Below are positions 179-58,026 of a stretch of 64,000 nucleotides of DNA, one piece after another (the first letter of the stretch is position 1; the number at the start of each line of letters is the position of its first letter). The stretch lies in contig CAVOGR010000005.1 in the NCBI GenBank assembly GCA_963695555.1, forward strand, positions 416,001 through 480,000, written 5' to 3'. Source of the stretch: an uncultured Gemmatimonadales bacterium (GTDB lineage: Bacteria; Gemmatimonadota; Gemmatimonadetes; Gemmatimonadales; GWC2-71-9). The notes below the pieces were generated by a model that had not been told where the DNA came from, ran no database searches, and worked only from the letters and a program-made list of their open reading frames with translations. Made by a program: the position numbers and the translations under genes.

Positions 179-2702
179 TCATTGCAGCCTGTTCGTCGTG
201 ATCGGCGGCTTCGGAGGCGGCGGCGCAGCAACCCGCATTACCAAGGGACGCAACTCCCCGACATCCATCGGCCGAGCGAACAGGAATCCCTGCGCCATGT
301 CGCACGCCGTTGTCTGCAACGCCTTCAACTGTTCCGGACCTTCGATGCCGTCGGCCACAACCCGCATTCCGAGGGCGTGGGCGATCTCGATGACGCCGTG
401 GACAAACGGCACGTTCTCGCCGCCACCGGCGAGACGGTCGGCCATACGCCGGCCGAGTTTCAACACGTCGATGTCGAGTCTCTGCAGGTAACCGAGCGAG
501 GCCTGCCCATCGCCGAACCGATCGAGGGCCACGATCGCGCCGGCAGCTCGCATGGTGGCCAGCGCCGCCACGGACCGGTCGAACTGATCGACTAGTACCT
601 CTTCAGGCCATTCGATCATGAGCCGGCCTCGTGCCTGATCGAGGGCTGGGGAGGCCAGAAGCGTGCCGATCGATTCGTCGAAGATGTGCTGAGGAGCCAA
701 GTTCACCGATACGAACAGCTTGGGGTCCAGCGGCCAGACGTCGGCCAGCTCCTCGGTCGCTTTCGTCAACACCCACCGGTCGAGCTGGACCATCAAGCCG
801 GCCCGCTCCACCTCGCCCAGGAACTCCCCCGGCAGGAGGAGGCCACGCCGGGGATGGCGCCAGCGGACGAGCGTTTCGACCCCACAGACACGCCGCTGTG
901 AGACGTCGATGATCGGCTGAAAGTGCAGTTCCAGCTGGTCTTGGCGAATTGCCGAATCGAGCGAGCCTGCTTTGACTTGCCGTGGTGTGGTCTGCCCGAC
1001 GTCGTGTTTCGCGAACGGAACCTTTGCCCGATTGCTTGGCTCGATACATCGCGGCGTCGGCGTCACGGAGGAGTGATTCGGCGTCGTGATCAGCCCCGCC
1101 ACCAACCAGTCCGACACTGCATCCGATTCTGGCCTGACCATCAGGCAGGGCGATCGGCTCGGCCATTGTGGCCACGATTCGATGGGCGATGACATCCGGT
1201 TGGTCGACGTCGATCAAGAGGACTGCGAACTCGTCGCCGCCAAACCGGGAGACGATATCCTCGGGCCGTACAAGATCGTTGAGCCGCCGGCCCACCTCGA
1301 TGAGTACGGCATCGCCGGCTGCGTGGCCGTACGTGTCGTTCACCGCTTTGAAGCCGTCGAGATCGATGAACAGGAGGGCGTGGTTCTTCGATGAGCGGGC
1401 GGCGAGGTGGAGGGCCTCGGTGAACATCGATCGATTCGGCAGACCGGTGAGCGAATCATGACTGGCCTGGTAGGCAAGCTCCCGTTCGAGCTGTCGCAGA
1501 TCGGTCAGTGCCTGTTCGAGCCGGTCGCTGTGCATCAGGATTGCCGACTGACGGGCTAATGCGCCGAGGACCTGGAGGTCGTTCTCGGAAAACGACGTGA
1601 CCTCCCCGAGCCGGTTCGCGACCACCAACAGACCGAGATCCCGATTCTCGGCACGGAGCTTGGCCACCATGGCATCTCGTCCGCCCAAACCGACGACCAG
1701 GTCGGCGACAACGCCTGTGTCGTCTCGGCCGATGATGGCGGGCTCGTGAAATGCCGACAGCGTTGAGACGACGCGTGCCACCTCTCGGGCCTTGACCAGT
1801 GAAGAGGACTGCTCCCCGGACTTGGTGCTCCGGACGACACGGATGCCGTCGTCTTCCTTCAACACCACTGCGCCGATTTCGGCCCGAAACATCTCCCGGG
1901 CCTCCTGCAACAAGGTGACGAGACCCGCCTCGGAGGCTCCGACGTCCAGTCGCCGAGTGGACCGATAGAGAAACTCGATGCGTTCCCTCTGTTCACGCTC
2001 CGAGGTGATCACTCGGAACGCGGTGAAGAGCAGGAAAACGGGAACCGCCAAGAGCAGGACGGCGAAGATGTCCCTGGCCAGAATGATGCCTGCAGTGAGA
2101 CCGATGGTTGTATTGGTCACGCTGACCACGAGCCCGAACGACAACAGCTCGGAACTCCTCCGCCAGCCAGGGAATCCTTCGGTCAGCATGACGACCAGTA
2201 CGATCAGGGCAAAGCTGGCCGCTGACCCGAGAACGACCGCCATGATCGTCGACAGCCAGATGAGCCGCTCGCCGTCGCCGAAGGGTTCCAACCCGACGAC
2301 CAGCGCGGCCGTCCCGGCAAATATCCCGAGATTTGCCGCATTGAAGGCGACCTTCAGGGCGGGCTGTCGCCTTCCAGCGAGGAGGCCCAAGGCTGTGCCG
2401 CCAATGGTGGCAATCACGACGTGGCCAGGCGCTGTGTAGAGCAAGCCCAGAACAAGAGGAATCTCGAAGAGCGAGAAACTGCTGGCTTCCGCCCGGAACT
2501 GCACGTGGATGACACGCCACTCGACAAAGGCGAATGCGGCCACAAGCCAGATGACGTTGATCTCGACGCCGGCGATTTGCGGCCGACCGCTGCTCAGCAG
2601 TGCCAGGAGGACAAGATCGAGGGTGAGCAAGGCCAGCACGAGGCCGAGAACCCGCTGTGATGGGTTGGTTCCGGCTGAACGTCGGCGGGCTCTCCGGCTC
2701 AC
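179..2702 (-). CDS. Membrane-anchored GAF-GGDEF-EAL protein (probable diguanylate cyclase with degenerate EAL); one frameshift near 1000-1030
   Basis: ORF 603..2702 has several TM helices, a GAF-like segment, HDSLTGLPNR, DLDGFKAVNDTYGH and RPEDIVSRFGGDEF. ORF 179..1195 supplies the EAL domain (HFQPI, VETLVRW, QGFLFARP). Confidence 0.9.
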
Positions 2703-2901
2703 CTTCAGACAATCGGCGGCGCCGGTCCCGAGATGAAATACCGGTCCGAGAAATCATCGATGCCCAGGTTTCTGGGCAGTGTTGCCCAAACATCTCGTGT
2801 CGGCCCGGGGGATTCGAGCTGAGCCTCTGGGCCAGCCGGCTCATCCTTGTTGTTCCGGGTTCAAGTTTTCGAGGTGAGGTGTCGAAAGCTGGTACGTACT
2901 A

Positions 2902-2991
2902 ATCACTGTGACCGAGGCGCTGATCCCCACGGCTGTACTTTGGTCGCTTGGCCGTGGGTGGGAGCCAGTAGCGAAACCGGCGTTCTCTGAT
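2902..2991 (+). ncRNA. Cyclic di-GMP-II riboswitch aptamer in the 5' leader of the S8 protease
   Basis: GAGGCGCTGA...CCCACGGC..TGGTCGCTT.GCCGTGGG..GAGCCAGTAGCGAAACCGG follows the class II layout: GGC/GCC stem, TGA/GA kink-turn, CCCACGGC/GCCGTGGG stem, loop TCGCT pseudoknotted to AGCGA, conserved AACCG junction. Confidence 0.85.
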
Positions 2992-3001
2992 CGACTGAGA
3001 G

Positions 3002-4583
3002 ATGAGAACAATGAGTACAGATTGGGTCCGAGTAGAGGGAGTCACCTGGCAGACTTCCAAACGAGACCAGTTGATCGCTCTCGCGGCAGCTTTGGCCTTG
3101 CTGGTTGCGGTGGTGGCGAGCGTCGCTCCAGCTTCTGCCGGCAAACCGGGTGGCAGCAGTTGGACGCCACCTTCGGGGATGTTCGGCTCCGAGGTCGCGT
3201 GGAGGACCGGGGTGGAACCGATGTGGGATCTCGGCTACACCGGCTCCGGGATCGATGTCGCCGTCATCGACACCGGTGTGAACGCCGTCCAAGGTCTCGA
3301 CGGCAGAGACAAGATCATCGACGGACCGGACTTCTCGTTCGACTCCGACGACGCCAACCTCCGCCACCGGGATCTCTACGGCCACGGCACCGCCATGGCC
3401 AGCCTGGTCGCCGGTGCTGCCGGGAAGAACGCCGATCTCGTCGGCGCCAACAACATGGCCTACGGTATGGCACCCAACGCCAGGATCGTCAACGTCAAGG
3501 TCGGCGACGGTGTCGGCGCCGTCGACGTCTCCCAGGTCATCGCCGCCATCGACTGGGTGGTTCAGCACCGCAACGCCAACGGCATGAACGTCCGGGTCAT
3601 GCTGTTGGCCTTCGACACCGACTCCACCCAGGGCTACCTCCTCGACCCGCTGGCCTATGCCGTCGAGAACGCCTGGCATCACGGCATCACCGTCGTGGTC
3701 TCGGCCGGCAATGACGGCAAGTCGGCCCAGACCCTGGGCAACCCGGCCATAGACCCCTACGTGATCGCCGTCGGCGGCGTCGAGCCGGCCAAGGGTAACT
3801 CGTGGAAGGTGCCGGGCTGGGCCTCGTCCGGTGACGGGATCCGCAACCCGGACCTGGCCACCCCGGCTCCCAGATCCTGGCCGCCGCCGTGCCGGGCTCC
3901 TATCTGGTCAACGCCCACCCGGATGCGGTGTTCGACACCCCCGACGGGCCGGTCATCCGAGGCAACGGCACCTCCCAAGCCGCCGCCGTCGCCGCCGGTG
4001 CCGCAGCGACTCTTCTCGAGGCCCGACCGAGCCTCACCCCCGACCAGGTCAAGGCCGCTCTCACCGGGAGCGCCAACGACGTCGGCATCCCCGCCAAGTT
4101 CGCCGGAACGGGCGTCCTCGACCTCCACCCCGCTCTCGACGCCAACGTCGTCGGCGCCACCCAGACCACGCCCGGGCCACGGGCCTCGGCACCCTCGAAG
4201 CCACCCGCGGCAGCTACCACGTCGGTCCGACAGGTGATCAGCTCAGCGGTGAGCTGACAGCGTTCGGCGACACCTGGAACCCCAGCGCCTGGAAGGCCGC
4301 CACCACCCAGGCCGCCGCCTACACAAACTCCACCTTCGACGGTGCGACCTGGAGCACCGGCTCCTGGCTCGGTGGCACCTGGTCCGGCGCAACCTGGTCC
4401 GGGGCAACCTGGAGCGGCGCAACCTGGTCCGGCGCAACCTGGAGCGGCGCCACCTGGTCCGGCGCAACCTGGTCCGGCGCAACCTGGAGCGGGGCCACCT
4501 GGTCCGGCGCAACCTGGTCCGGCGCAACCTGGAGCGGGGCCACCTGGTCCGGCGCAACCTGGAGCGGAAGCAGCTGGAGCTGA
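3002..4583 (+). CDS. Secreted S8 (subtilisin/AprX-like) serine protease with a C-terminal Trp-rich pentapeptide repeat tail; frameshifts near 3865 and 4170
   Basis: Signal peptide (LIALAAALALLVAVVASVAPASA). Catalytic motifs VIDTG, GHGTAMA, SAGN (ORF 3002) and GNGTSQAA (ORF 3889). Tail in ORF 3831..4583. Confidence 0.9.
4380..4559 (+). repeat. 12 x 15-bp coding tandem repeat encoding (WSGAT)12
   Basis: Units TGG-TCC/AGC-GGC/GGG-GCA/GCC-ACC vary only synonymously; followed by WSGSSWS*. Confidence 0.97.
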
Positions 4584-4653
4584 CCGAAGACGCTCAACCA
4601 GCGAGGAACTCCCTGGAACCAGCCGGATGACACGGTTCCTCAAAACACCGCCA

Positions 4654-4687
4654 GCGCAGCGCCCAGTCCAAACACTGGGCGCTGCGT
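4654..4687. terminator. GC-rich hairpin between the convergent protease and tRNA genes (likely bidirectional terminator)
   Basis: GCGCAGCGCCCAGT-ccaaac-ACTGGGCGCTGCGT. Confidence 0.7.
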
Positions 4688-4709
4688 CGCGTCGTCGGTG
4701 AAACAGCGG

Positions 4710-4794
4710 TGCCCGGGGTGGGAGTCGAACCCACACGCCCCCTGAGGAGCCGAGGGGTTTAAGCCCTCTGCGTCTGCCGTTCCGCCACCCGGGC
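4710..4794 (-). tRNA. tRNA-Leu(TAA)
   Basis: Reverse complement GCCCGGGTGGCGGAACGGCAGACGCAGAGGGC-TTAAA-CCCCTC...GGTTCGACTCCCACCCCGGGCA; long variable arm, anticodon loop CT-TAA-AC. Confidence 0.95.
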
Positions 4795-4861
4795 GTGGAT
4801 GGCCGGCTACCAGACTAGAACGGCCCGTGGGCGAATGGCCGTCAAAGTCGCCGATTCGACG

Positions 4862-6271
4862 TCAGAGTTGCAGGACGGGAACCTGATGATGATCAAGCCG
4901 GTCGACACCCAACAGGTCGAGCATGGCCGGAGCGAAGTCGAGGTAGTCGACCTGACGATCGGCCGGTTGCTTGAAGCTGGGCGAGTTGGACACGGCCACC
5001 ACCCCTTCGGGGATGTGCCGGCCGCTGGAGTGGTCGTCGACGGCATGGATCTCCAATCCGGCCGTCGCTGCGTCGACCGATCGCCCGTCGAGGACCACGG
5101 TCTCATCGTCGACCACCACCAGGCCGTACGTCAACGTGACCACGTCGTCGACCCGATCGACCCGCCAGCGGTGATGGTCGCCACCGACCTCGGCGAGGCG
5201 GGCCGCCAGCTGTTCGGCCGCTTCGGTCGATCCGCAGGCGAGCGTCAGGTTGGGCGCCATCGAACCGCGGACCGACGGCATCCGATCGACGTCGACGCCG
5301 ACTGCGGCGAGAAACGCCTCCGGATCCACGATCACCACGTCGTGGGTCAGGTCCGACTCGAGTTCGCGACTCGGCCCCTGGCCCATCGACGACACGACAA
5401 CCAGCGTTCGACCGTTCCGTTTGCACCACTCGTCGAGCCGCGTCAGAAAGTGATCCAGCATCTCGACGGCCACCGCAATCTCGTCGCGGTGGCGGGCGAC
5501 CCAGTCGATCGAGTAGTGCTCGGTGCTGAAATCGTCGGGGTACATGGCATACCAGTAGCGATGCATGGCGGCGGCAACGTGGTTCGTGAACATCACCGCC
5601 AGGTCCGGGGCCTCGTCGGTCAGCAGCCGCAGGAACACGTCGGACAGGATCATGAACTGTCCGGACCGGACCCGCTCCCGGGGAACCCGCCCTGCCGCCG
5701 CCTCGGCGGCCAGCCGACCGAGCCGGGCGACCGTCGACCCGCTCAACCCAAGCCCGGCCATCGCCTTCAACGCCGGACCGACCTCGGACCGTACCGACCG
5801 AAGATCCGACTTCCGGCTGTTCGCCTTGGTCAACCGCAGATTGAGTTCCTGGAACGGTCGATACCGGTCGGGACTCGTGTCGGCATCGACGGCGAAGCAG
5901 TCGGGAATGGCGAAGCGGTAGTCACCACTCGAGCACTGGATCGACAGCGGCGACGAATGCAACGTGCTCACGAGCCCGACGGAGCGATCGGAACGGGCCG
6001 CCACCTGCCAGTAGAGGGGGTAGGTGGCCGGTTTCGGATCGCCGTACCACCACACCCGATGGTCCCGCCACGGCACCCCGGTGTTGAGTGAGGCCCAGGT
6101 CTGCGATGGATACATCTCCCTCGGGAGCTGCTCCGACACGACCGTGTCGACGACCTGGTCGTCGTCGAGTAGCTGCCCGATGAACGGCGCTCGACCCATC
6201 GCGGCCACGTCGGTCAGCACCCGGCGTGGAACCTCGTTCACCTCGATGACGACGACCTGGCGATAGTCCAT
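4862..6271 (-). CDS. Alkaline phosphatase superfamily (nucleotide pyrophosphatase/phosphodiesterase-like) protein
   Basis: IEVNEVP, PSQTWASLNTG, NHVAAAMHRYW, VVVSSMGQ, SGRHIPEG and DFAPAMLDLLG motifs. Confidence 0.7.
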   Translation of the reverse strand: MDYRQVVVIEVNEVPRRVLTDVAAMGRAPFIGQLLDDDQVVDTVVSEQLPREMYPSQTWASLNTGVPWRDHRVWWYGDPKPATYPLYWQVAARSDRSVGLVSTLHSSPLSIQCSSGDYRFAIPDCFAVDADTSPDRYRPFQELNLRLTKANSRKSDLRSVRSEVGPALKAMAGLGLSGSTVARLGRLAAEAAAGRVPRERVRSGQFMILSDVFLRLLTDEAPDLAVMFTNHVAAAMHRYWYAMYPDDFSTEHYSIDWVARHRDEIAVAVEMLDHFLTRLDEWCKRNGRTLVVVSSMGQGPSRELESDLTHDVVIVDPEAFLAAVGVDVDRMPSVRGSMAPNLTLACGSTEAAEQLAARLAEVGGDHHRWRVDRVDDVVTLTYGLVVVDDETVVLDGRSVDAATAGLEIHAVDDHSSGRHIPEGVVAVSNSPSFKQPADRQVDYLDFAPAMLDLLGVDRLDHHQVPVLQL

Positions 6272-44230: not shown

Positions 44231-47200
44231 TCACACGCTCGCGGATGGTCTGGAAGACGACGTAGAGCGGCGGGAATGACGAAGATGCCCACCACGGCGG
44301 CGGCGAGCATGCCGCCCGCGACGGCGGTGCCCACGGCGCGGCGGGACAGTTCGGCGGCGCCCTCGGCGCGTCACCAGCGGGATCAGGCCGGCGATGAAGG
44401 CGAAGCTCGTCATCATCACCGCGCGGAAGCGGGCTGCGCGCCCGTCGATCGCGCGGCGTCGACGATCGACGCGCCCTCCTCGCGCCTCACCTTGGCGAAC
44501 TCCACGATCAGGATCGCGTTCTTGGCGGCCAGCGCGATGCAGCACGACGAGGCCGATCTGGGCGTAGATGTCGAACGGGAAGCCGGCGAGCCATGAGCGC
44601 GAGCGAACGCGCCCGCCGACCCCGAAGACCACCGAGAGCAGCACCGGGATCGGGATCGTCCAGCTCTCGTAGAGCGCCACGAGGAACAGGTAGGCGAAGA
44701 GCAGCGCGAGGCCGAGGATCAGCGGTGGTCTGGCCGCTCGCCTCCTTCTCCTGCAGCGCGGTGCCCGTCCATTCGAAGCCGATAGCCCGGCGGCAGGGTC
44801 GCGGCCGAGATCTCCTCCATCGCCAGCGAGCGCCGTGCCGGAGGCGACGCCCGGCGCCGGGTTCGCCGTTGGATCGTCACCGAGCGGAGGTTGTTGTAGC
44901 GCATGATCGACAGGGACCGACCTCGCAGTCGCGGCCTCGGCGACGGCGCCGATCGGCACCATCTCGCCGTGCGGCGATTGCGGACGTGGATGCGCGCGAT
45001 GTCCTCGACCGCGTCGCGGTCCGGCTCGGCGCCTGCATGCGTCACCCGCCAGGAGCGGCCGAAGAGGTTGAAGTCGTTGACGTAGACCGACCCGAGCGTC
45101 GCCTGCAGCGCGGCGAAGACGATCCGAGACGGGACGCCGAGCGCGCTGCAGCCGCTCGCGGTCGATGTCGAGGAAGATGCGCGGCGCGTTCGCCGAGTAG
45201 GTGGTGAAAACGCCCGGCGAGCCGCGGGTCCTGGTTCGCGGCCACGATCAGGCCCCGCGCGGCGGCTGCGGCAAGCTCGGCGGCCGGAGCGGCCCTGGCG
45301 GTCGAGCAGCTGATACTCGAAGCCCGAGCCGGTGCCGAGGCCGATGATCGGCGGCAGGTTGAAGGCGAAGACCTGCGCCTCGCGGATCGCCGCCCCGCGC
45401 CCGTTCGCCTGCGCGATGATCGCCGCGACACGTCGGCCCCGGGCGTCGTCCGCTCGGCGAAGGATCCTGCAGCGTGACGACCGAGAAGGCCGCGTTCGAC
45501 TTCGCGAGCCCGTCGAGGAAGCTGATAGCCGGATGATCGTGACGACGCTCTCGACCCCGGGCAGGCCGCGCCAGCATCGCCTCGACCTGGCCCTGCCACC
45601 GTGACGGTGCGGTTGACCGAGGCGACCCTCGGGCAGCCGGATCTCCACGAAGAAGGCTCCCTGGTCCTCGGCGGGCAGGAACCCGGTCGGCACGCGCCCG
45701 GCGAGCCAGCCGGTCAGCGCCGAAGGCGCCGACAAGCAGCAGCGACGCCGAGGAACGCGCGCCGCGCGATGGCGCCGGCGACCCGGGCGTAGCCGTCGCG
45801 CGCCCGTCGATCCCGCGCGAGATCCAGCCGAGCACGCCGCCGCGCGGGCCGTGATGCGGCTTGAGGATGATGGCGCAGAGCGCGGGGCTGAGCGTGAGCG
45901 CGTTGATCGCCGAGATCACCATCGAGACCGAGACGGCCACCGCGAACTGCTGGAAGAGTTGGCCCGAGATGCCCGGGATGAAGGCCACCGGCACGAAGAC
46001 CGACAGCAGCACCAGCGTGATGGCGACGATGGCGCCGGTGATCTCGCCCATGGCCTTGCGGTCGCCGCCTCGGCCGGCGTCATGCCGGGGTTCTCCTCCA
46101 TCACCCGCTCGACGTTCTCGACCACGACGATGGCGTCGTCGACGACGATGCCGATGGCGAGCACGAGCGCGAGCAGCGAGACGGTGTTGAGCGAGAAGCC
46201 GAGCGCCAGCATCACCGCGAAGGTGCCGATCAGCGCCACCGGGACCGCGATGATCGGGATCAGCGTGGCCCGGAGGCTGCCGAGGAAGACGAAGACGACG
46301 ATGCACGACGAGCACGAACGCCTCGATCAGCGTGTGCTCGCACCTCGTCGATGCTCTCCTCCACGAATTCGGTGGTGTCGTAGGTCATGCTTGTAGGCGA
46401 CGCCCTCGGGGAAGGCTCGCGCCACGCGCTCGAGCACCGACTGCACACCGTCGCGCCGCCGCCGATCGCGTTGGCGCCGGGCGCGAGGTAGAGGCCGATC
46501 ATGGCGCTCGGGCGCACCGTCGATCCGGGCGGTCGATGTCCGAGTTGCGCCGCCCCGAGCTCCACCGTCGCCGACGTCGCGGATGCCGCACGACGCTGCC
46601 GTCGGGGTCCGCGCGGACGACGATGTCGCCGAACTCCTCCGGCGTCGGTCGAGCCGGCCCTGGGTGGAGATGTTGAGCTGGAACAGCGGGTCCGCCGTCA
46701 TCGGCTGGCGCGCCGACCCGGCCGATGGCGGCCTGCACGTTCTGCGCCCGGATCGCGGCGATCACGTCGGCCGGCGTCAGCCCGAGCGCCGGTCAGCCGG
46801 TCGACGTCGAGCTAGACGCGCATGGCGAAGTCGCGCGGCCCGAACATCGCCGCGTCGCCGACGCCGGGCACCCGCTTCAGCTGGTCGAGGAGGTTGATGC
46901 GGGCGTAGTTCGACAGGAACAGCGCGTCGTGATCGCCGCTCCTCGGCAGTAGAGGCTGATCACCTGCAGCAGGGCGGAGGACTGCTTCTTGACGCTCACG
47001 CCGGTCTGCCGCACCTCCTCGCGGCAGCATGCGGCCGTCGCCAGCGCCACGCGGTTCTGCACGTTCACCGTGGCGATGTCGGGGTCGGTGCCGACCGCGA
47101 AGGAGACGGTGAGCGAGTAGCTGCCGTCCGCGCCGCTGGTCGACTTCATGTAGATCATGTCGTCGACGCCGATGACCTGGTCCTCGATCGGCTGGGCGAC

Positions 47201-55155: not shown

Positions 55156-58026
55156 TCAGCCGCAGGCGCCCACATGGCCGCAGGCGGTGCAGAAGTCGCA
55201 GCCGTCGCGGCGGATCAGGGTGGGGTGGCCGCATTCGGGGCAGGTGCGACCGGGCAGCACGGCTTGTCCGGGGGCGCCGGGCGCGGGGGCGTCGCTCCAG
55301 AGCACCGTGCCGCCGGCGACCGGATAGCCGCCGGCGTCGAGCACGCCGAGCATCTGGTACCGGTGGATCAGCAGCCGTGCGACATAGGCGATGGTCGAGG
55401 GCTGCACCGCCTGTTTCTCGCTGCCCGGCACGCGGGCGAAGAAGTCGCCCTGCGCCTCGGGCAGGTCCTTCAGGCCGCGCAGCTTCTTGCCGATCCAGGC
55501 GGGGTCGATGACGCGCATATCAAGGCTCAGCGACTTCGTGAGGCCGTTGAACTCCAGCGGATAAGCGCCCGACAGCCATACGGAAAACGGGCGCTTGGTG
55601 CCGTCGGGCAGTACGCATTCCTTCACGAACATCGCGAAGTCGTCGCCGGTGGTGGGGTTGAGGATGTCAACCGTCCAACTCAGCGTGCCATCGGCGCCGG
55701 ACTTCGGCTCCTTGCGCGAGAAGAGCGCATCGACCAGCGGTGTGCCGCCCTCCGGCCCGTCGAAGACGCCGAGCGCCGTGCAGCGGTATTCCAGCACCTT
55801 GGCGAAGGCGCTGACGGCACCCGCCACCGGCACTAGCCGGCCGTCGGGAGGCATTGCCATCTCGAATGGGGCGCCGGGGGTCTTGGCGAGGCTGTCGAGC
55901 TTCATCTTCAGCCAGCCGCGGTCCTGGGCGCGCAGGTCCATCGACATGTTCTTGGCCAGCGCGCCGAGGCCGCGCGGGGCTTCCTCGCCGTTCACCCAGA
56001 CCTCGAAGGGCTGGGCGGTGCCGTTCTCGACATGGCCCACGAAGACCGCGAAGCGGCGGCCGGGCGCCTCGACCATGTAGGTCCACGACGGCGAGCCCGG
56101 CCGTGAGCTTCGGCCGGTGCGGCCAGCGCAGGGCGGCGAGCGCCACCTGCGGCGCGCCCGTGATGCGGATGCGGCGGTCGGGCTCGGACTGGTCGAGGTC
56201 CTGCGGCGGGGTCTCGACCGAGAGGACCGAGCCGAGCACGCTGTTGGGGCGGTAGGTGGTGATACCCTTCAGGCCGGCCTTCCAGGCCTCGAGGTAGAGG
56301 GTCTCGAACTCCTCGAACGGATAGTCCTCGGGAACGTTCACGGTCTTGGAGATCGCCTGGTCGATGAAGGGCTGGATGGCCGCCTGCATCGCCATGTGGT
56401 CGCGCGCGCCGATCTCCAGCGCGTTGACGAAGGCGGCGGCAGCGCAGCGGTATTGCCGCCGCGCGCCTTCCAAAGCCGCCAGGCATGGTCCTCGACGGTG
56501 TATTCGCGCATGCTCGCCGTCGGGTTCGCGCTTCTTGCGGGTGTAGTGCCAGGAATAGGCCGGCTCGATGCCGTTCGAGGCGTTGTCGGCGAAGGCGAGG
56601 CTGATGGTGCCGGTGGGGGCGATGGACAAGCAGGTGGCTGTTGCGAAGGCCATCCCCGGCGATCTGGGTGCGGATGTCGTCGGGCAGGCGTCTTGCCATG
56701 CCGGAGTCGAGGAGTTTGTCCGCATCGAGGAACGGGAAGCTGCCCTTCTCGCGGGCCAGCGCCACCGAGGCGCGGTAGGCGGCGTCGCGCAGGCGGCGGG
56801 CGAGGCCGGTGGCGGCGTCGCGACCCTCGGCGCTGTCGTAGCGCAGGCCCATCAGGATCAGCGTGTCGCCGAGACCGGTGAAGCCGAGGCCGATGCGCCG
56901 CTTGGAGGCGGCCTCCGCCGCCTGCTGGGGTAGCGGCCAGACAGTGGCGTCGAGCACGTTGTCGAGCATGCGCACGGCCACGGCCACGGTTGCCTCGAAG
57001 CCGTCATGGTCGAAGCCGGGGGTCTCGGAGAAGGGTCCGGTGACGAATCGCGTCAGGTCGATCGAGCCGAGGCAGCAGCAGCCGTGGTCGGGGATGGGGA
57101 TCTCGCCGCAGGGGTTGGTGGCCTCGATCCGCTCGCAGTAGGCGAGGTTGTTCTCGGCGTTGATGCGGTCGAGGAACAGCACGCCCGGCTCGGCGGCGTC
57201 ATAGGTGTTGCGCATGATCGTGCGCCAGAGTTCGCGCGCGCGGATCGTGGCATAGACCCAGAGGCCGTCCGCCCGCTGGTGCGCGCCCGCCGCGACCTGC
57301 ACCGGAGCCGGCTGGGCCTTGTGGACCAGCTCGAAGGTGCCGTCGGCCTCGACCGCCGCCATGAAGGCATCGGTGACGCCGACGGAGATGTTGAAGTTGT
57401 TGAGCCTCGCCCGCCTGGCGCTTGGCAGAGACGAACTCCATCACGTCCGGGTGGTCGCAGCGCAGCACGCCCATCTGCGCGCCGCGCCGCGAGCCCGCGC
57501 TCTCGACGGTGGCGCAGGACTGGTCGAAGACATGCATGTAGCTGATCGGGCCGGAGGCGGCGCTGTCGGTGCCGTGGACGCGGGCGCCGCGGGGCCGGAT
57601 GGCCGAGAAGTCGTAGCCGACCCCGCCGCCGCGGCGCATGGTCTCGGCGGCCTCGCGGAGTGCGATGTAAATCCCGGGCTTGCCGTCCACGGTTTCGGAG
57701 ATCGAATCGCCCACCGGCTGCACGAAGCAGTTGATCAGGGTTACCTCCTCGATCCCGGCCCCTGCCGCAGAATTGATCCGCCCGCCGGGGATGAAGCCGT
57801 CCTCCAGCGCCTTGAGGAACACCGGTTCCCAGGCCGCCGGGTCGGCCTCGACTGCCGCCAGCGCGCGGGCCACGCGGCGGCGCACGGCGCGGGCCATGTC
57901 GGGGCCGTCGAGGTCGCGTTCCGCGCCCTTGGCGTACTTTTCGCGCAGGACGTCGAGGCTCACCTCCTGCCAGGGCAGGGCGATGGCGGTGTCCTCGCCG
58001 AAGTCCCGGCTGTCGGGTTTGTTCAT
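55156..58026 (-). CDS. nrdJ: Adenosylcobalamin-dependent (class II) ribonucleotide reductase, frameshifted
   Basis: [64 protein letters not shown] and C-terminal CPECG..C..C..CG. Confidence 0.93.

Follow-up and report, generated by a model that had tools for sequence, protein, structure and literature searches.

A c-di-GMP-II-fold riboswitch aptamer with canonical pocket bases upstream of a secreted subtilase gene in an uncultured Gemmatimonadales bacterium

What kind of c-di-GMP-II aptamer does the leader of a secreted protease gene contain in an uncultured Gemmatimonadales bacterium, what does it bind, and in which direction would it control the gene? These questions are raised by a short segment of the window, a stretch of 64,000 nucleotides of contig CAVOGR010000005.1, in which a c-di-GMP-II aptamer, possibly of a variant class, and a candidate translational switch had been proposed by a sequence-only reading. 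In what follows, positions are those of the window and all features are on the + strand unless stated otherwise. Segment 2904-2991 is a genuine aptamer with the c-di-GMP-II fold, located upstream of a secreted protease gene.

Covariance-model searches match this whole segment to two Rfam families. With RF03169 (c-di-GMP-II-GAG) the score is 45.1 bits, above the gathering cut-off of 40, and the E-value is 1.3e-05 for the whole 64-kb window searched against all 4227 families. With RF01786 (canonical c-di-GMP-II) the score is 46.3 bits, under the gathering cut-off of 53.5; this match is full-length (model positions 1-84) and has an E-value of 4.7e-09 on 501 nt and of 7.9e-9 on the genome. Neither of these models matches the 3.57-Mb assembly anywhere outside segment 2904-2991, and RF03170 (c-di-GMP-II-GCG) is not reported as a match for the window. 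The two scores, well outside what chance would give, bear out the proposal of a c-di-GMP-II aptamer. The letters from which it had been built are also correct, namely TGGTCGCTT at 2941-2949, AGCGA at 2970-2974, GTTCTC at 2982-2987, GAGAAC at 3004-3009, the two ATG triplets at 3002-3004 and 3011-3013, and GGC (2916-2918) facing GCC (2964-2966).

Related aptamers were collected by a pattern scan of genome contigs, which gave at least 121 loci, most of them chance matches. Among the loci listed, 31 score at least 32.7 bits with model R1 and the remainder at most 27 bits. Two spurious RNAalifold pairs inside the pseudoknot strand were removed from alignment A2 before R1 was built. Alignment A3 leaves out loci that score below the cut, namely the GAG-type L008 with its long P3 and three weak hits (L004, L005, and L009). 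The counts over 35 aptamers given below concern aptamers among the matches listed.

Alignment to the Rfam models shows the aptamer to be made up of helices P1, P2, and P3 and of a pseudoknot joining the P3 loop to the 3' tail. P1 pairs 2904-2914 with 2981-2991. In the 10-pair register of our own model, 6 of its 10 pairs are standard and 4 are non-standard; by eye, an alternative outer register can be drawn between AUCA 2902-2905 and UGAU 2988-2991. Position 2912 is a C here and an A in contigs from related strains (short pieces that do not come from the source strain, and for which only the best-supported differences are considered), which turns a C.U mismatch into an A-U pair. Among the 35 listed aptamers, P1 covaries and 71% of its cells are paired. 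The imperfect closing stem, from which a variant class had been suspected, thus falls inside the family range. P2 is formed by GGC 2916-2918 with GCC 2964-2966, as supported by the Rfam alignment and by covariation. These letters had been read as a replacement of AAC/GTT, which is not confirmed in that form: GGC/GCC is itself the P2 consensus of both RF03169 and RF01786 (ggC/Gcc) and only the first pair varies. Indeed, this first pair is GC in 12 of the 35 listed aptamers, UA in 6, AU in 4, UG in 4, GU in 2, and unpaired in 7; the second and third pairs are near-invariant. In both solved constructs, the first pair of P2 is A-U (PMC13715770).

The P3 hairpin (2925-2960) has a stem made of 2925-2932 with 2952-2960, where U2959 is bulged, and its loop bears the 5' strand of the pseudoknot. 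Its modelled pairs vary on both sides in 6 cases out of 6 and 91% of its cells are paired in the 35 listed aptamers. Between P2 and P3, the internal loop GCUGAU (2919-2924) faces GGA (2961-2963) and yields a tandem G.A signature, which we take to be the kink-turn of the c-di-GMP-II class. The bases of this signature are kept almost without exception among the 35 listed aptamers (G2922, 35/35; A2923, 34/35; G2962, 35/35; A2963, 35/35). Overall, 80.9% of the P1, P2, and P3 cells are paired, as compared with 36-41% when the partners are slid by 1-3 columns, in an alignment of 35 listed aptamers that was fitted to the model and is therefore biased in favor of pairing. The observed helix covariation score was reached by none of 500 shuffles of the same listed set.

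The pseudoknot associates a 5' strand, GG followed by UCGCU (2942-2948), with a 3' strand (2970-2978) made of AGCGA, the two unpaired adenines A2975 and A2976, and CC. UCGCU 2944-2948 pairs with AGCGA 2970-2974 and GG with CC 2977-2978, for a total of 7 bp. When compared with the RF01786 consensus lines (GGGCAC/GUGC), one G:C pair has become U:A and one A:U pair has become G:C, both changes being compensatory. The outermost pair, 2948:2970, is C-G in 16 of the 35 listed aptamers, U-A in 11, G-C in 1, a C.C mismatch in 4, and gapped in 3; this covarying pair was left free by the search pattern. The earlier view that the pseudoknot is retained through compensatory change is upheld by the two swaps and by the covariation of this outer pair. 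The UCGCU/AGCGA letters are the version found in the Rfam GAG and GCG models, common in high-GC phyla.

The residues of the ligand pocket were placed by counting from the Rfam consensus lines onto the residues named in PMC13715770. By this mapping, the unpaired A2915, at an Rfam consensus position, is the equivalent of the pocket floor (A8 of the Bh construct), A2967 that of the ceiling (Bh A56), and A2975, A2976, and G2979 (within 2975-2979) those of A69, A70, and G73 of PDB 3Q3Z, for all of which ligand-contact roles are described in the solved structures (PMC13715770). Among the 35 listed aptamers, the floor is an A in 25 and the ceiling is an A in all 35. The three models RF01786, RF03169, and RF03170 differ at exactly two positions following GCGA/GUGC, their consensus at the ligand-contact site being A-A-CC-G, G-A-CC-G, and G-C-CC-G, respectively. 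The window has A-A-CC-G, like RF01786; where the RF03169 consensus is GGCGA-G-A-CCG, the window has AGCGA-A-A-CCG. If the name GAG denotes positions 69, 70, and 73, as we infer, its first letter should be a G, and this position is occupied by A2975. Similarly, the G-C pair of letters that defines GCG is replaced by A-A. The same pocket is shared by 22 of the 35 listed aptamers, the tally of A-A, A-C, G-A, and G-C being 22:7:3:3, in a pattern-selected sample that gives no estimate of frequencies.

As the bases at A2915, A2967, A2975, A2976, and G2979 are canonical, the ligand is most likely c-di-GMP. A2975 would read one guanine, A2976 would sit between the two bases, and G2979 would read the other guanine. 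Judged by its pocket, the 2904-2991 riboswitch is a canonical-pocket c-di-GMP-II, which adds one more case to an already known class of RNA and is not a new variant; the suspected variant class is not borne out, the ligand-contact bases being A-A-G where the variant model has G-A-G. The GAG label given to this segment arises because RF03169 has a lower cut-off than RF01786. This gathering-level label agrees with the earlier guess of a variant in name only.

The gene downstream (3011-4583) encodes an S8 subtilase (Pfam Peptidase_S8, 1.9e-20) with C-terminal TWSGA repeats. Its product has a signal peptide, with an N-terminal hydrophobic stretch ahead of ASAGKP. As assembled, the gene is spread over three frames, 3011-3865, 3862-4143, and 4167-4580, as delineated by tblastn with the L132 homologue. 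L132 is the closest S8 homologue found (60% identity over 209 residues); it also has an A-A-type aptamer, scoring 66 bits and located 22 nt upstream of its own ATG, and, among the 6 metagenome loci that hold relatives of the S8 gene, it alone has an aptamer within 1500 nt upstream. Here, 19 nt separate the end of the aptamer from ATG 3011. The other candidate, ATG 3002, is lost in the related-strain contigs through T3003>G and the insertion of a C behind position 3002; for 3011-3013, these contigs show no listed change. ATG 3011 is thus the probable start codon of the S8 gene. The same two differences create GGAG 4 nt upstream of ATG 3011 in the related contigs, where the probable ribosome-binding site, GAGAA (3004-3008), reads GGAGAA. 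The assembly holds no 16S rRNA gene from which the anti-SD could be read. In the region 2600-3100, neither a sigma-70 promoter nor a terminator downstream of the aptamer was found; a single terminator-like site, located upstream of the aptamer, does not exceed what is expected. On the - strand, a divergent neighbor (179-2702) is split over two frames and encodes GAF-GGDEF and EAL domains (Pfam GGDEF, 1.4e-40; GAF; EAL, 7.6e-57), in a genome with 13 GGDEF matches. This gene is context only and stands outside the switch.

How might the aptamer act on the S8 gene? Predicted folds contain an alternative hairpin (2982-3009) in which GUUCUC 2982-2987, part of the P1 3' strand, pairs with GAGAAC 3004-3009 around a loop (2988-3003). 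It is present in both the minimum-energy and the centroid folds (-9.7 kcal/mol) and is mutually exclusive with P1 when the folds are compared. Segment 3004-3009 is 4% unpaired in the unconstrained fold and 83% unpaired once the aptamer helices are enforced. In the proposed mechanism, the weak P1 would give up its 3' strand to GAGAAC, the probable ribosome-binding site, when no ligand is bound. With ligand, P1 and the pseudoknot would hold the GUUCUC strand and leave the initiation region free, so that high c-di-GMP would turn translation of the protease ON. The hairpin arms carry no listed change in the related-strain contigs and the loop carries 4 substitutions and 1 insertion; this is conservation without covariation, in a listing that covers the best-supported differences and in which an arm change may have gone unlisted. 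As another candidate for a conserved pairing, UCUCU 2984-2988 with AGAGA 2998-3002 was rejected, because G2999 is an A in the related contigs.

Relatives supply further elements. Many of them have a terminator whose 5' arm consists of the aptamer ACCGGC and of the P1 3' strand, with ON logic, and in several translational relatives the P1 3' strand is complementary to the ribosome-binding site. Complementarity between these two elements reaches p <= 0.07 in 4 of 13 other short-leader relatives (L053, 0.006; L039, 0.001; L099, 0.023; L047, 0.07); beside these, L040 also passes (p 0.024), yet it reads as a terminator type. In 8 of the 13, among which L091, L113, and L084, no P1-to-initiation-region complementarity was found at this level, and L132 has only 5 bp of it (p 0.23). 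The ON switch proposed by the sequence-only reading therefore stands in part: the exclusive pairing of P1 and hairpin in the folds and the ON logic of relatives argue for it, whereas the 6-nt complement is not beyond chance. An exact complement of this length also arises in 9.4% of 1000 sequences obtained by shuffling the 25 nt downstream (p 0.094), the duplex energy (p = 0.24) is not beyond chance alone, and the whole leader folds no better than shuffles (z -0.17). We consider it reasonably probable that the leader of the S8 subtilase carries a class II c-di-GMP riboswitch that acts as a translational ON switch, with no terminator; this proposed mechanism is the best reading.

Three other explanations have to be weighed. 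The aptamer could truly belong to the c-di-GMP-II-GAG variant class and sense something other than c-di-GMP, as RF03169 is the sole Rfam match to reach its gathering cut-off (45.1 vs. 40), the UCGC/GCGA pseudoknot letters are the GAG and GCG consensus, and the genus also contains clear GAG-type copies (G004, 63.7 and 47.4 bits), whose key position is a G. However, the base that gives GAG its first letter is an A, just as the canonical model has it, and the RF01786 score is slightly higher. Moreover, of 20 other listed aptamers with the A-A pocket and the same pseudoknot, 11 score best with RF01786, and 4 of these 11 exceed its cut-off; there is therefore a gradation from this type to the canonical family, and membership of the GAG variant is very unlikely. 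Set beside RF03169, the aptamer has the same high G+C and differs in its outer pseudoknot pair, which is U:A instead of the C:G of that consensus. RF03170 belongs to the same clan (CL00127) and shares the fold and the pseudoknot letters but has a G-C consensus at the two pocket positions instead of A-A. Decay is another explanation, according to which a non-functional leader would precede a dead gene, with two frameshifts in the protease, now in three frames, and the C2912 mismatch in P1 where related strains pair. Consistent with a region that is dispensable in the lineage, no S8 orthologue was found at E <= 1e-20 in 25 relatives and no GAF-GGDEF orthologue at E <= 1e-30 in 4 congeners. Against decay, housekeeping genes of the window are also frame-split, among them the gene for the ribonucleotide reductase large subunit and, over three frames, that for an AcrB-type pump, so that the frameshifts look like assembly indels. 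In each frame, the S8 fragment is still 55-68% identical to L132 and free of internal stops, and the pocket and G.A-signature bases are all intact. The related-strain contigs show several indels around 4124-4167 and do not decide the frameshift near 3862; the sequencing runs listed include no RNA run, and the largest share of sampled words in any of them was at most 0.12. We regard decay as unlikely.

Finally, control could run in the opposite direction, with the bound aptamer blocking initiation (OFF), or by another route, through transcription or mRNA stability. The spacing to the start codon is very short (19 nt), the aptamer ends 12 nt before the ribosome-binding site, the candidate hairpin is statistically unremarkable, and GAGAG 2997-3001 and ATG 3011 are largely unpaired in both modelled states, from which it follows that the effect on initiation may be modest. 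Yet the ribosome-binding site lies wholly outside the aptamer helices, no terminator-like site follows the aptamer within 2600-3100, and, among the matches listed, relatives with clear expression platforms are all of ON design. Class II switches of Clostridioides difficile are likewise described as ON (PMC11477304). An OFF switch or another route is hence unlikely, and translational ON control remains the preferred reading.

Comparison with known systems places the aptamer close to RF01786 and PDB 3Q3Z. It shares with them P1, P2, P3, and the pseudoknot over the full model, the G.A signature, identical bases at the pocket positions of PMC13715770 (floor A, ceiling A, A-A, and G), and a location in the leader of a secreted-protein gene. 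It differs from RF01786 by two exchanged pseudoknot pairs, one extra U:A pair, a weak P1, a score under the cut-off, and a host from the Gemmatimonadota rather than the Firmicutes. In C. difficile, class II c-di-GMP riboswitches are described as ON switches of pilin, CmrRST, and adhesin genes (PMC11477304). The likeness would lie in a ligand-stabilized aptamer that relieves a competing structure and turns on a surface or secreted function. In that source, the C. difficile platforms are transcriptional, with terminators and once a group I ribozyme, whereas the platform proposed here is translational, with no terminator and a competing helix over the ribosome-binding region.

What does this finding mean for the family? 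Among 20 canonical-pocket aptamers listed, gathering-level labels are "GAG variant" for 8 and canonical for 4. Canonical-pocket aptamers of high-GC phyla are labelled in this way because the RF03169 cut-off is much lower than that of RF01786. The GAG and GCG motifs were reportedly defined by Weinberg et al. in 2017 (PMC5737381), whose main text refers to c-di-GMP-II a single time, in its introduction. No ligand for these variants was found reported in the main texts searched, where the two papers that name the GAG type do not deal with its ligand. A search for the ligand of the GAG variant by means of Rfam labels should hence sort the matches by their pocket bases first. Beyond this annotation lesson, the finding is otherwise ordinary.

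The pocket forms a graded series inside a single bacterial family and even inside a single genus: it is A-A here and in genome G022, whereas G004 has two copies with G-A and one with A-C. It is conceivable, if quite improbable, that a canonical A-A-G pocket set in a GAG/GCG-style pseudoknot is a natural intermediate, and that this subgroup may sense another dinucleotide or several. Other dinucleotides could be sensed if selectivity is altered by the U:A pair stacked on the first adenine of the pocket or by the G-C that natively opens P2; if true, the graded series would show how the GAG and GCG variants arose. For the organism, the aptamer adjoins a gene for both making and breaking c-di-GMP (GAF-GGDEF-EAL), and the locus would offer a clean, annotatable example of the control of a secreted subtilase by c-di-GMP in Gemmatimonadota, a phylum with few characterized regulators.

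Searched against Rfam at gathering thresholds, the whole window has two matches, a tRNA and, at 2904-2991 (+), the c-di-GMP-II-GAG model RF03169 (45.1 bits, E 1.3e-05, cut-off 40). The covariance-model check suggested in an earlier, sequence-only reading of this DNA is thus positive, and its identification of a c-di-GMP-II aptamer was essentially right. The strings that it quoted are all present where it placed them: the loop TGGTCGCTT (2941-2949), AGCGA (2970-2974), GTTCTC (2982-2987), GAGAAC (3004-3009) and the ATG codons at 3002 and 3011. At permissive thresholds, the best clan member on 2700-3200 is the canonical model RF01786, which aligns over its full length at 46.3 bits, under its cut-off of 53.5. 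The RNA at 2904-2991 is real, and it is the sole place in the 3.57-Mb assembly (87% complete) matched by RF03169 or RF01786.

When 40 relatives were searched with RF03169, matches above the cut-off were found in two other genomes, one of the same genus (G004) and one of the same family (G022). A pattern scan of GTDB species genomes, with UCGC, GAGC.A and GCGA fixed and two positions of the ligand pocket left as R and M, gave at least 121 loci. All of them were scored with a covariance model built from 12 clear cases, and the scores fall in two clear groups: 31 loci reach at least 32.7 bits, and the remainder do not exceed 27 bits. When the window aptamer and the G004 and G022 copies are added, these 31 loci make an alignment of 35 aptamers from Chloroflexota, Saccharibacteria, Actinomycetota and Gemmatimonadota; one locus, L026, belongs to a Gemmatimonadales genome with a sequence identical to that of G004.

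This alignment was fitted to the model, so that the helix statistics lean in the model's favour: standard pairs occupy 80.9% of helix cells, vs. 36-41% after a shift of the 3' partners by 1-3 columns, and the covariation score is reached by 0 of 500 shuffles. Both-side changes occur in 10/10 P1 pairs and 6/6 modelled P3 pairs. P1 has standard pairs at 6 of 10 positions in the window and in 71% of its cells over the 35 aptamers. The G.A signature is near-invariant (G2922, G2962 and A2963 each in 35/35, A2923 in 34/35). In the pseudoknot (2944-2948 with 2970-2974), UCGC/GCGA differs from the canonical GCAC/GUGC by two compensatory exchanges, as the sequence-only reading had noticed, and the outermost pair 2948:2970, left free in the search pattern, is C-G in 16 aptamers, U-A in 11, G-C in one and C.C in four, with a gap in three. 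The second compensatory change proposed in that reading, GGC/GCC, is helix P2 (2916-2918 with 2964-2966), which is the plain consensus of both RF03169 and RF01786 and varies in its first pair only.

ATG 3002 lies 10 nt and ATG 3011 19 nt beyond the end of the aptamer, and no terminator-like site was found downstream of it. In the unconstrained fold of 2895-3035, P1 is absent and GUUCUC 2982-2987 pairs with GAGAAC 3004-3009 in the minimum-energy and centroid structures alike, exactly the pairing on which the earlier proposal of a ligand-induced ON switch was based. In partition functions, 3004-3009 is unpaired at 4% in the free RNA, vs. 83% under constraints that enforce the aptamer helices and block the pseudoknot bases. 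This logic is probably right, but the statistics behind it are weak: 9.4% of shuffles also contain a perfect 6-nt complement, p is 0.24 for the duplex energy, and the whole leader folds no better than its shuffles. Many relatives carry a terminator ending in GCCGG and a U run, with the aptamer's ACCGGC and the P1 3' strand as its 5' arm, which is an ON design. Among 13 other short-leader relatives, the P1 3' strand is complementary to the ribosome-binding site in L053 (p 0.006), L039 (p 0.001), L099 (p 0.023) and L047 (p 0.07), and also in L040 (p 0.024), but the latter is of the terminator type; such complementarity is absent in the others, for example L091, L113 and L084.

Short contigs with 85-99% identity, taken from the public runs X2, X3 and X6, were used to compare the leaders of related strains. 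A C2912 to A change is common to these contigs and turns a C.U mismatch of P1 into an A-U pair. Also common to them are substitutions at 2993, 2996, 2999 and 3003 and a C inserted after 3002, all in the hairpin loop, and no change is listed in the hairpin arms, the listing being of the best-supported differences only. For the arms, this evidence is conservation, not covariation. Because the change at 3003 and the inserted C remove ATG 3002 and create a GGAG 4 nt ahead of ATG 3011, the latter is taken as the start. The predicted ribosome-binding site is then taken as G(G)AGAA at 3003/3004-3008, which is also the pairing partner of the P1 3' strand. The best reading of this leader is a putative translational ON switch; its direction agrees with that of the class II c-di-GMP riboswitches of C. 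difficile, described as ON switches (PMC11477304).

The gene starting at ATG 3011 encodes a subtilase (Pfam Peptidase_S8, 1.9e-20) that is probably secreted, since its N-terminus has a hydrophobic stretch ending in ASAGKP. No orthologue was found at E <= 1e-20 in 25 relatives. The closest relative found, on a metagenome contig (L132), is 60% identical over 209 residues; there, an A-A-type aptamer ends 22 nt before the ATG of the S8 gene, an ATG that follows GGAGAG. Hence, the aptamer-subtilase pairing is not unique to the window's genome. Genes 3' of other aptamers mostly have signal-peptide-like N-termini and, where Pfam matches exist, encode a camelysin-like peptidase, DUF11, a family 2 glycosyltransferase, TPR and similar domains.

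Compared with the L132 protein, the S8 gene (3011-4583, +) lies in three frames, 3011-3865, 3862-4143 (with the catalytic serine motif GTSQAAA) and 4167-4580 (with C-terminal TWSGA repeats); the breaks are near 3862-3866 and 4143-4167. The divergent upstream neighbour, 179-2702 (-), likewise looks like one frameshifted gene, with GAF-GGDEF at 603-2702 and EAL at 179-1195 in different frames that switch at about 964-1022; the genome has 13 GGDEF matches. Gene decay was set aside as the cause: a ribonucleotide reductase large subunit (55670-57440, -) and an AcrB-type pump (44234-46384, -) are equally split, in two and three frames, respectively. The frameshifts are therefore read as assembly errors, which points to frequent indel errors in the assembly; single-base details of the riboswitch (bulged U2959, loop lengths) are subject to the same caveat. 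The GAF-GGDEF gene has no orthologue at E <= 1e-30 in four congeners and, at the thresholds used, none of the GGDEF-EAL gene, the riboswitch and the S8 gene has one in the congeners searched. These three elements adjoin tRNA-Leu(taa) at 4708-4794 (-), and 179-4794 may be a species-specific insertion beside a tRNA gene. Just beyond the tRNA, a 430-aa ORF (4799-6091, +) has no Pfam match at E <= 0.001.

Could the aptamer belong to a variant class, as had been suggested? In the c-di-GMP-II structure (PDB 3Q3Z), A69 contacts one guanine via three hydrogen bonds, A70 sits between both ligand bases and G73 recognises the other guanine; the pocket has one adenine as its ceiling and an A.G pair topping P1 as its floor, and the first pair of P2 stacks against the ligand backbone (PMC13715770). 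With three independent anchors to count from in the consensus, namely the unpaired A that precedes P2, the A that follows its 3' strand, and the A-A-CC-G run, these roles fall on A2915, A2967, A2975, A2976, and G2979, with G2980 as partner of the floor adenine. The 3' tails in the consensus lines of the cmscan output read GUGC-A-A-CCG (RF01786), GGCGA-G-A-CCG (RF03169) and GGCGA-G-C-CCG (RF03170, the GCG variant). We infer that GAG and GCG stand for the bases found at positions 69, 70 and 73, vs. A-A-G in the canonical family. The window aptamer reads A-A-G and, if the name is so understood, would fail the defining feature of the GAG variant, yet it passes the low cut-off of RF03169. Its letters in common with the two variant models lie in the pseudoknot, UCGC with GCGA. 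The variant class is thus not borne out.

At the two variable pocket positions, the 35 aptamers read A-A in 22, A-C in seven, G-A in three and G-C in three, counts among pattern-selected matches listed and not frequencies; judged from these sequences, they show the window's A-A type to be common. G022 has an A-A copy like that of the window; G004 has two true GAG copies in tandem and one copy that Rfam files under GCG, reading A-C. The tandem copies (L002, 467-552 and 725-811, -), also found in L026, are about 170 nt apart, ahead of one lipoprotein-like gene. The A-C type, with the canonical first base and C replacing the intercalating A, agrees with the consensus of none of the three Rfam models; its seven members are L006 (25-110, -, of G004; filed under the GCG variant on rescan), L035, L064, L080, L120, L124, and L130. 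When 20 other A-A aptamers (19 from the alignment and L132) were rescanned, RF01786 was best for 11, four of them above its cut-off, and RF03169 for nine, eight of them above its own. The A-A type therefore passes gradually into the canonical family, and the window aptamer is an ordinary, somewhat low-scoring member, labelled GAG because the cut-offs of RF03169 and RF01786 are unequal. By its predicted pocket, it is a canonical c-di-GMP-II riboswitch whose pseudoknot letters are common in high-GC phyla. As a warning for annotation, the Rfam labels GAG and GCG mix four pocket types, A-A, A-C, G-A, and G-C.
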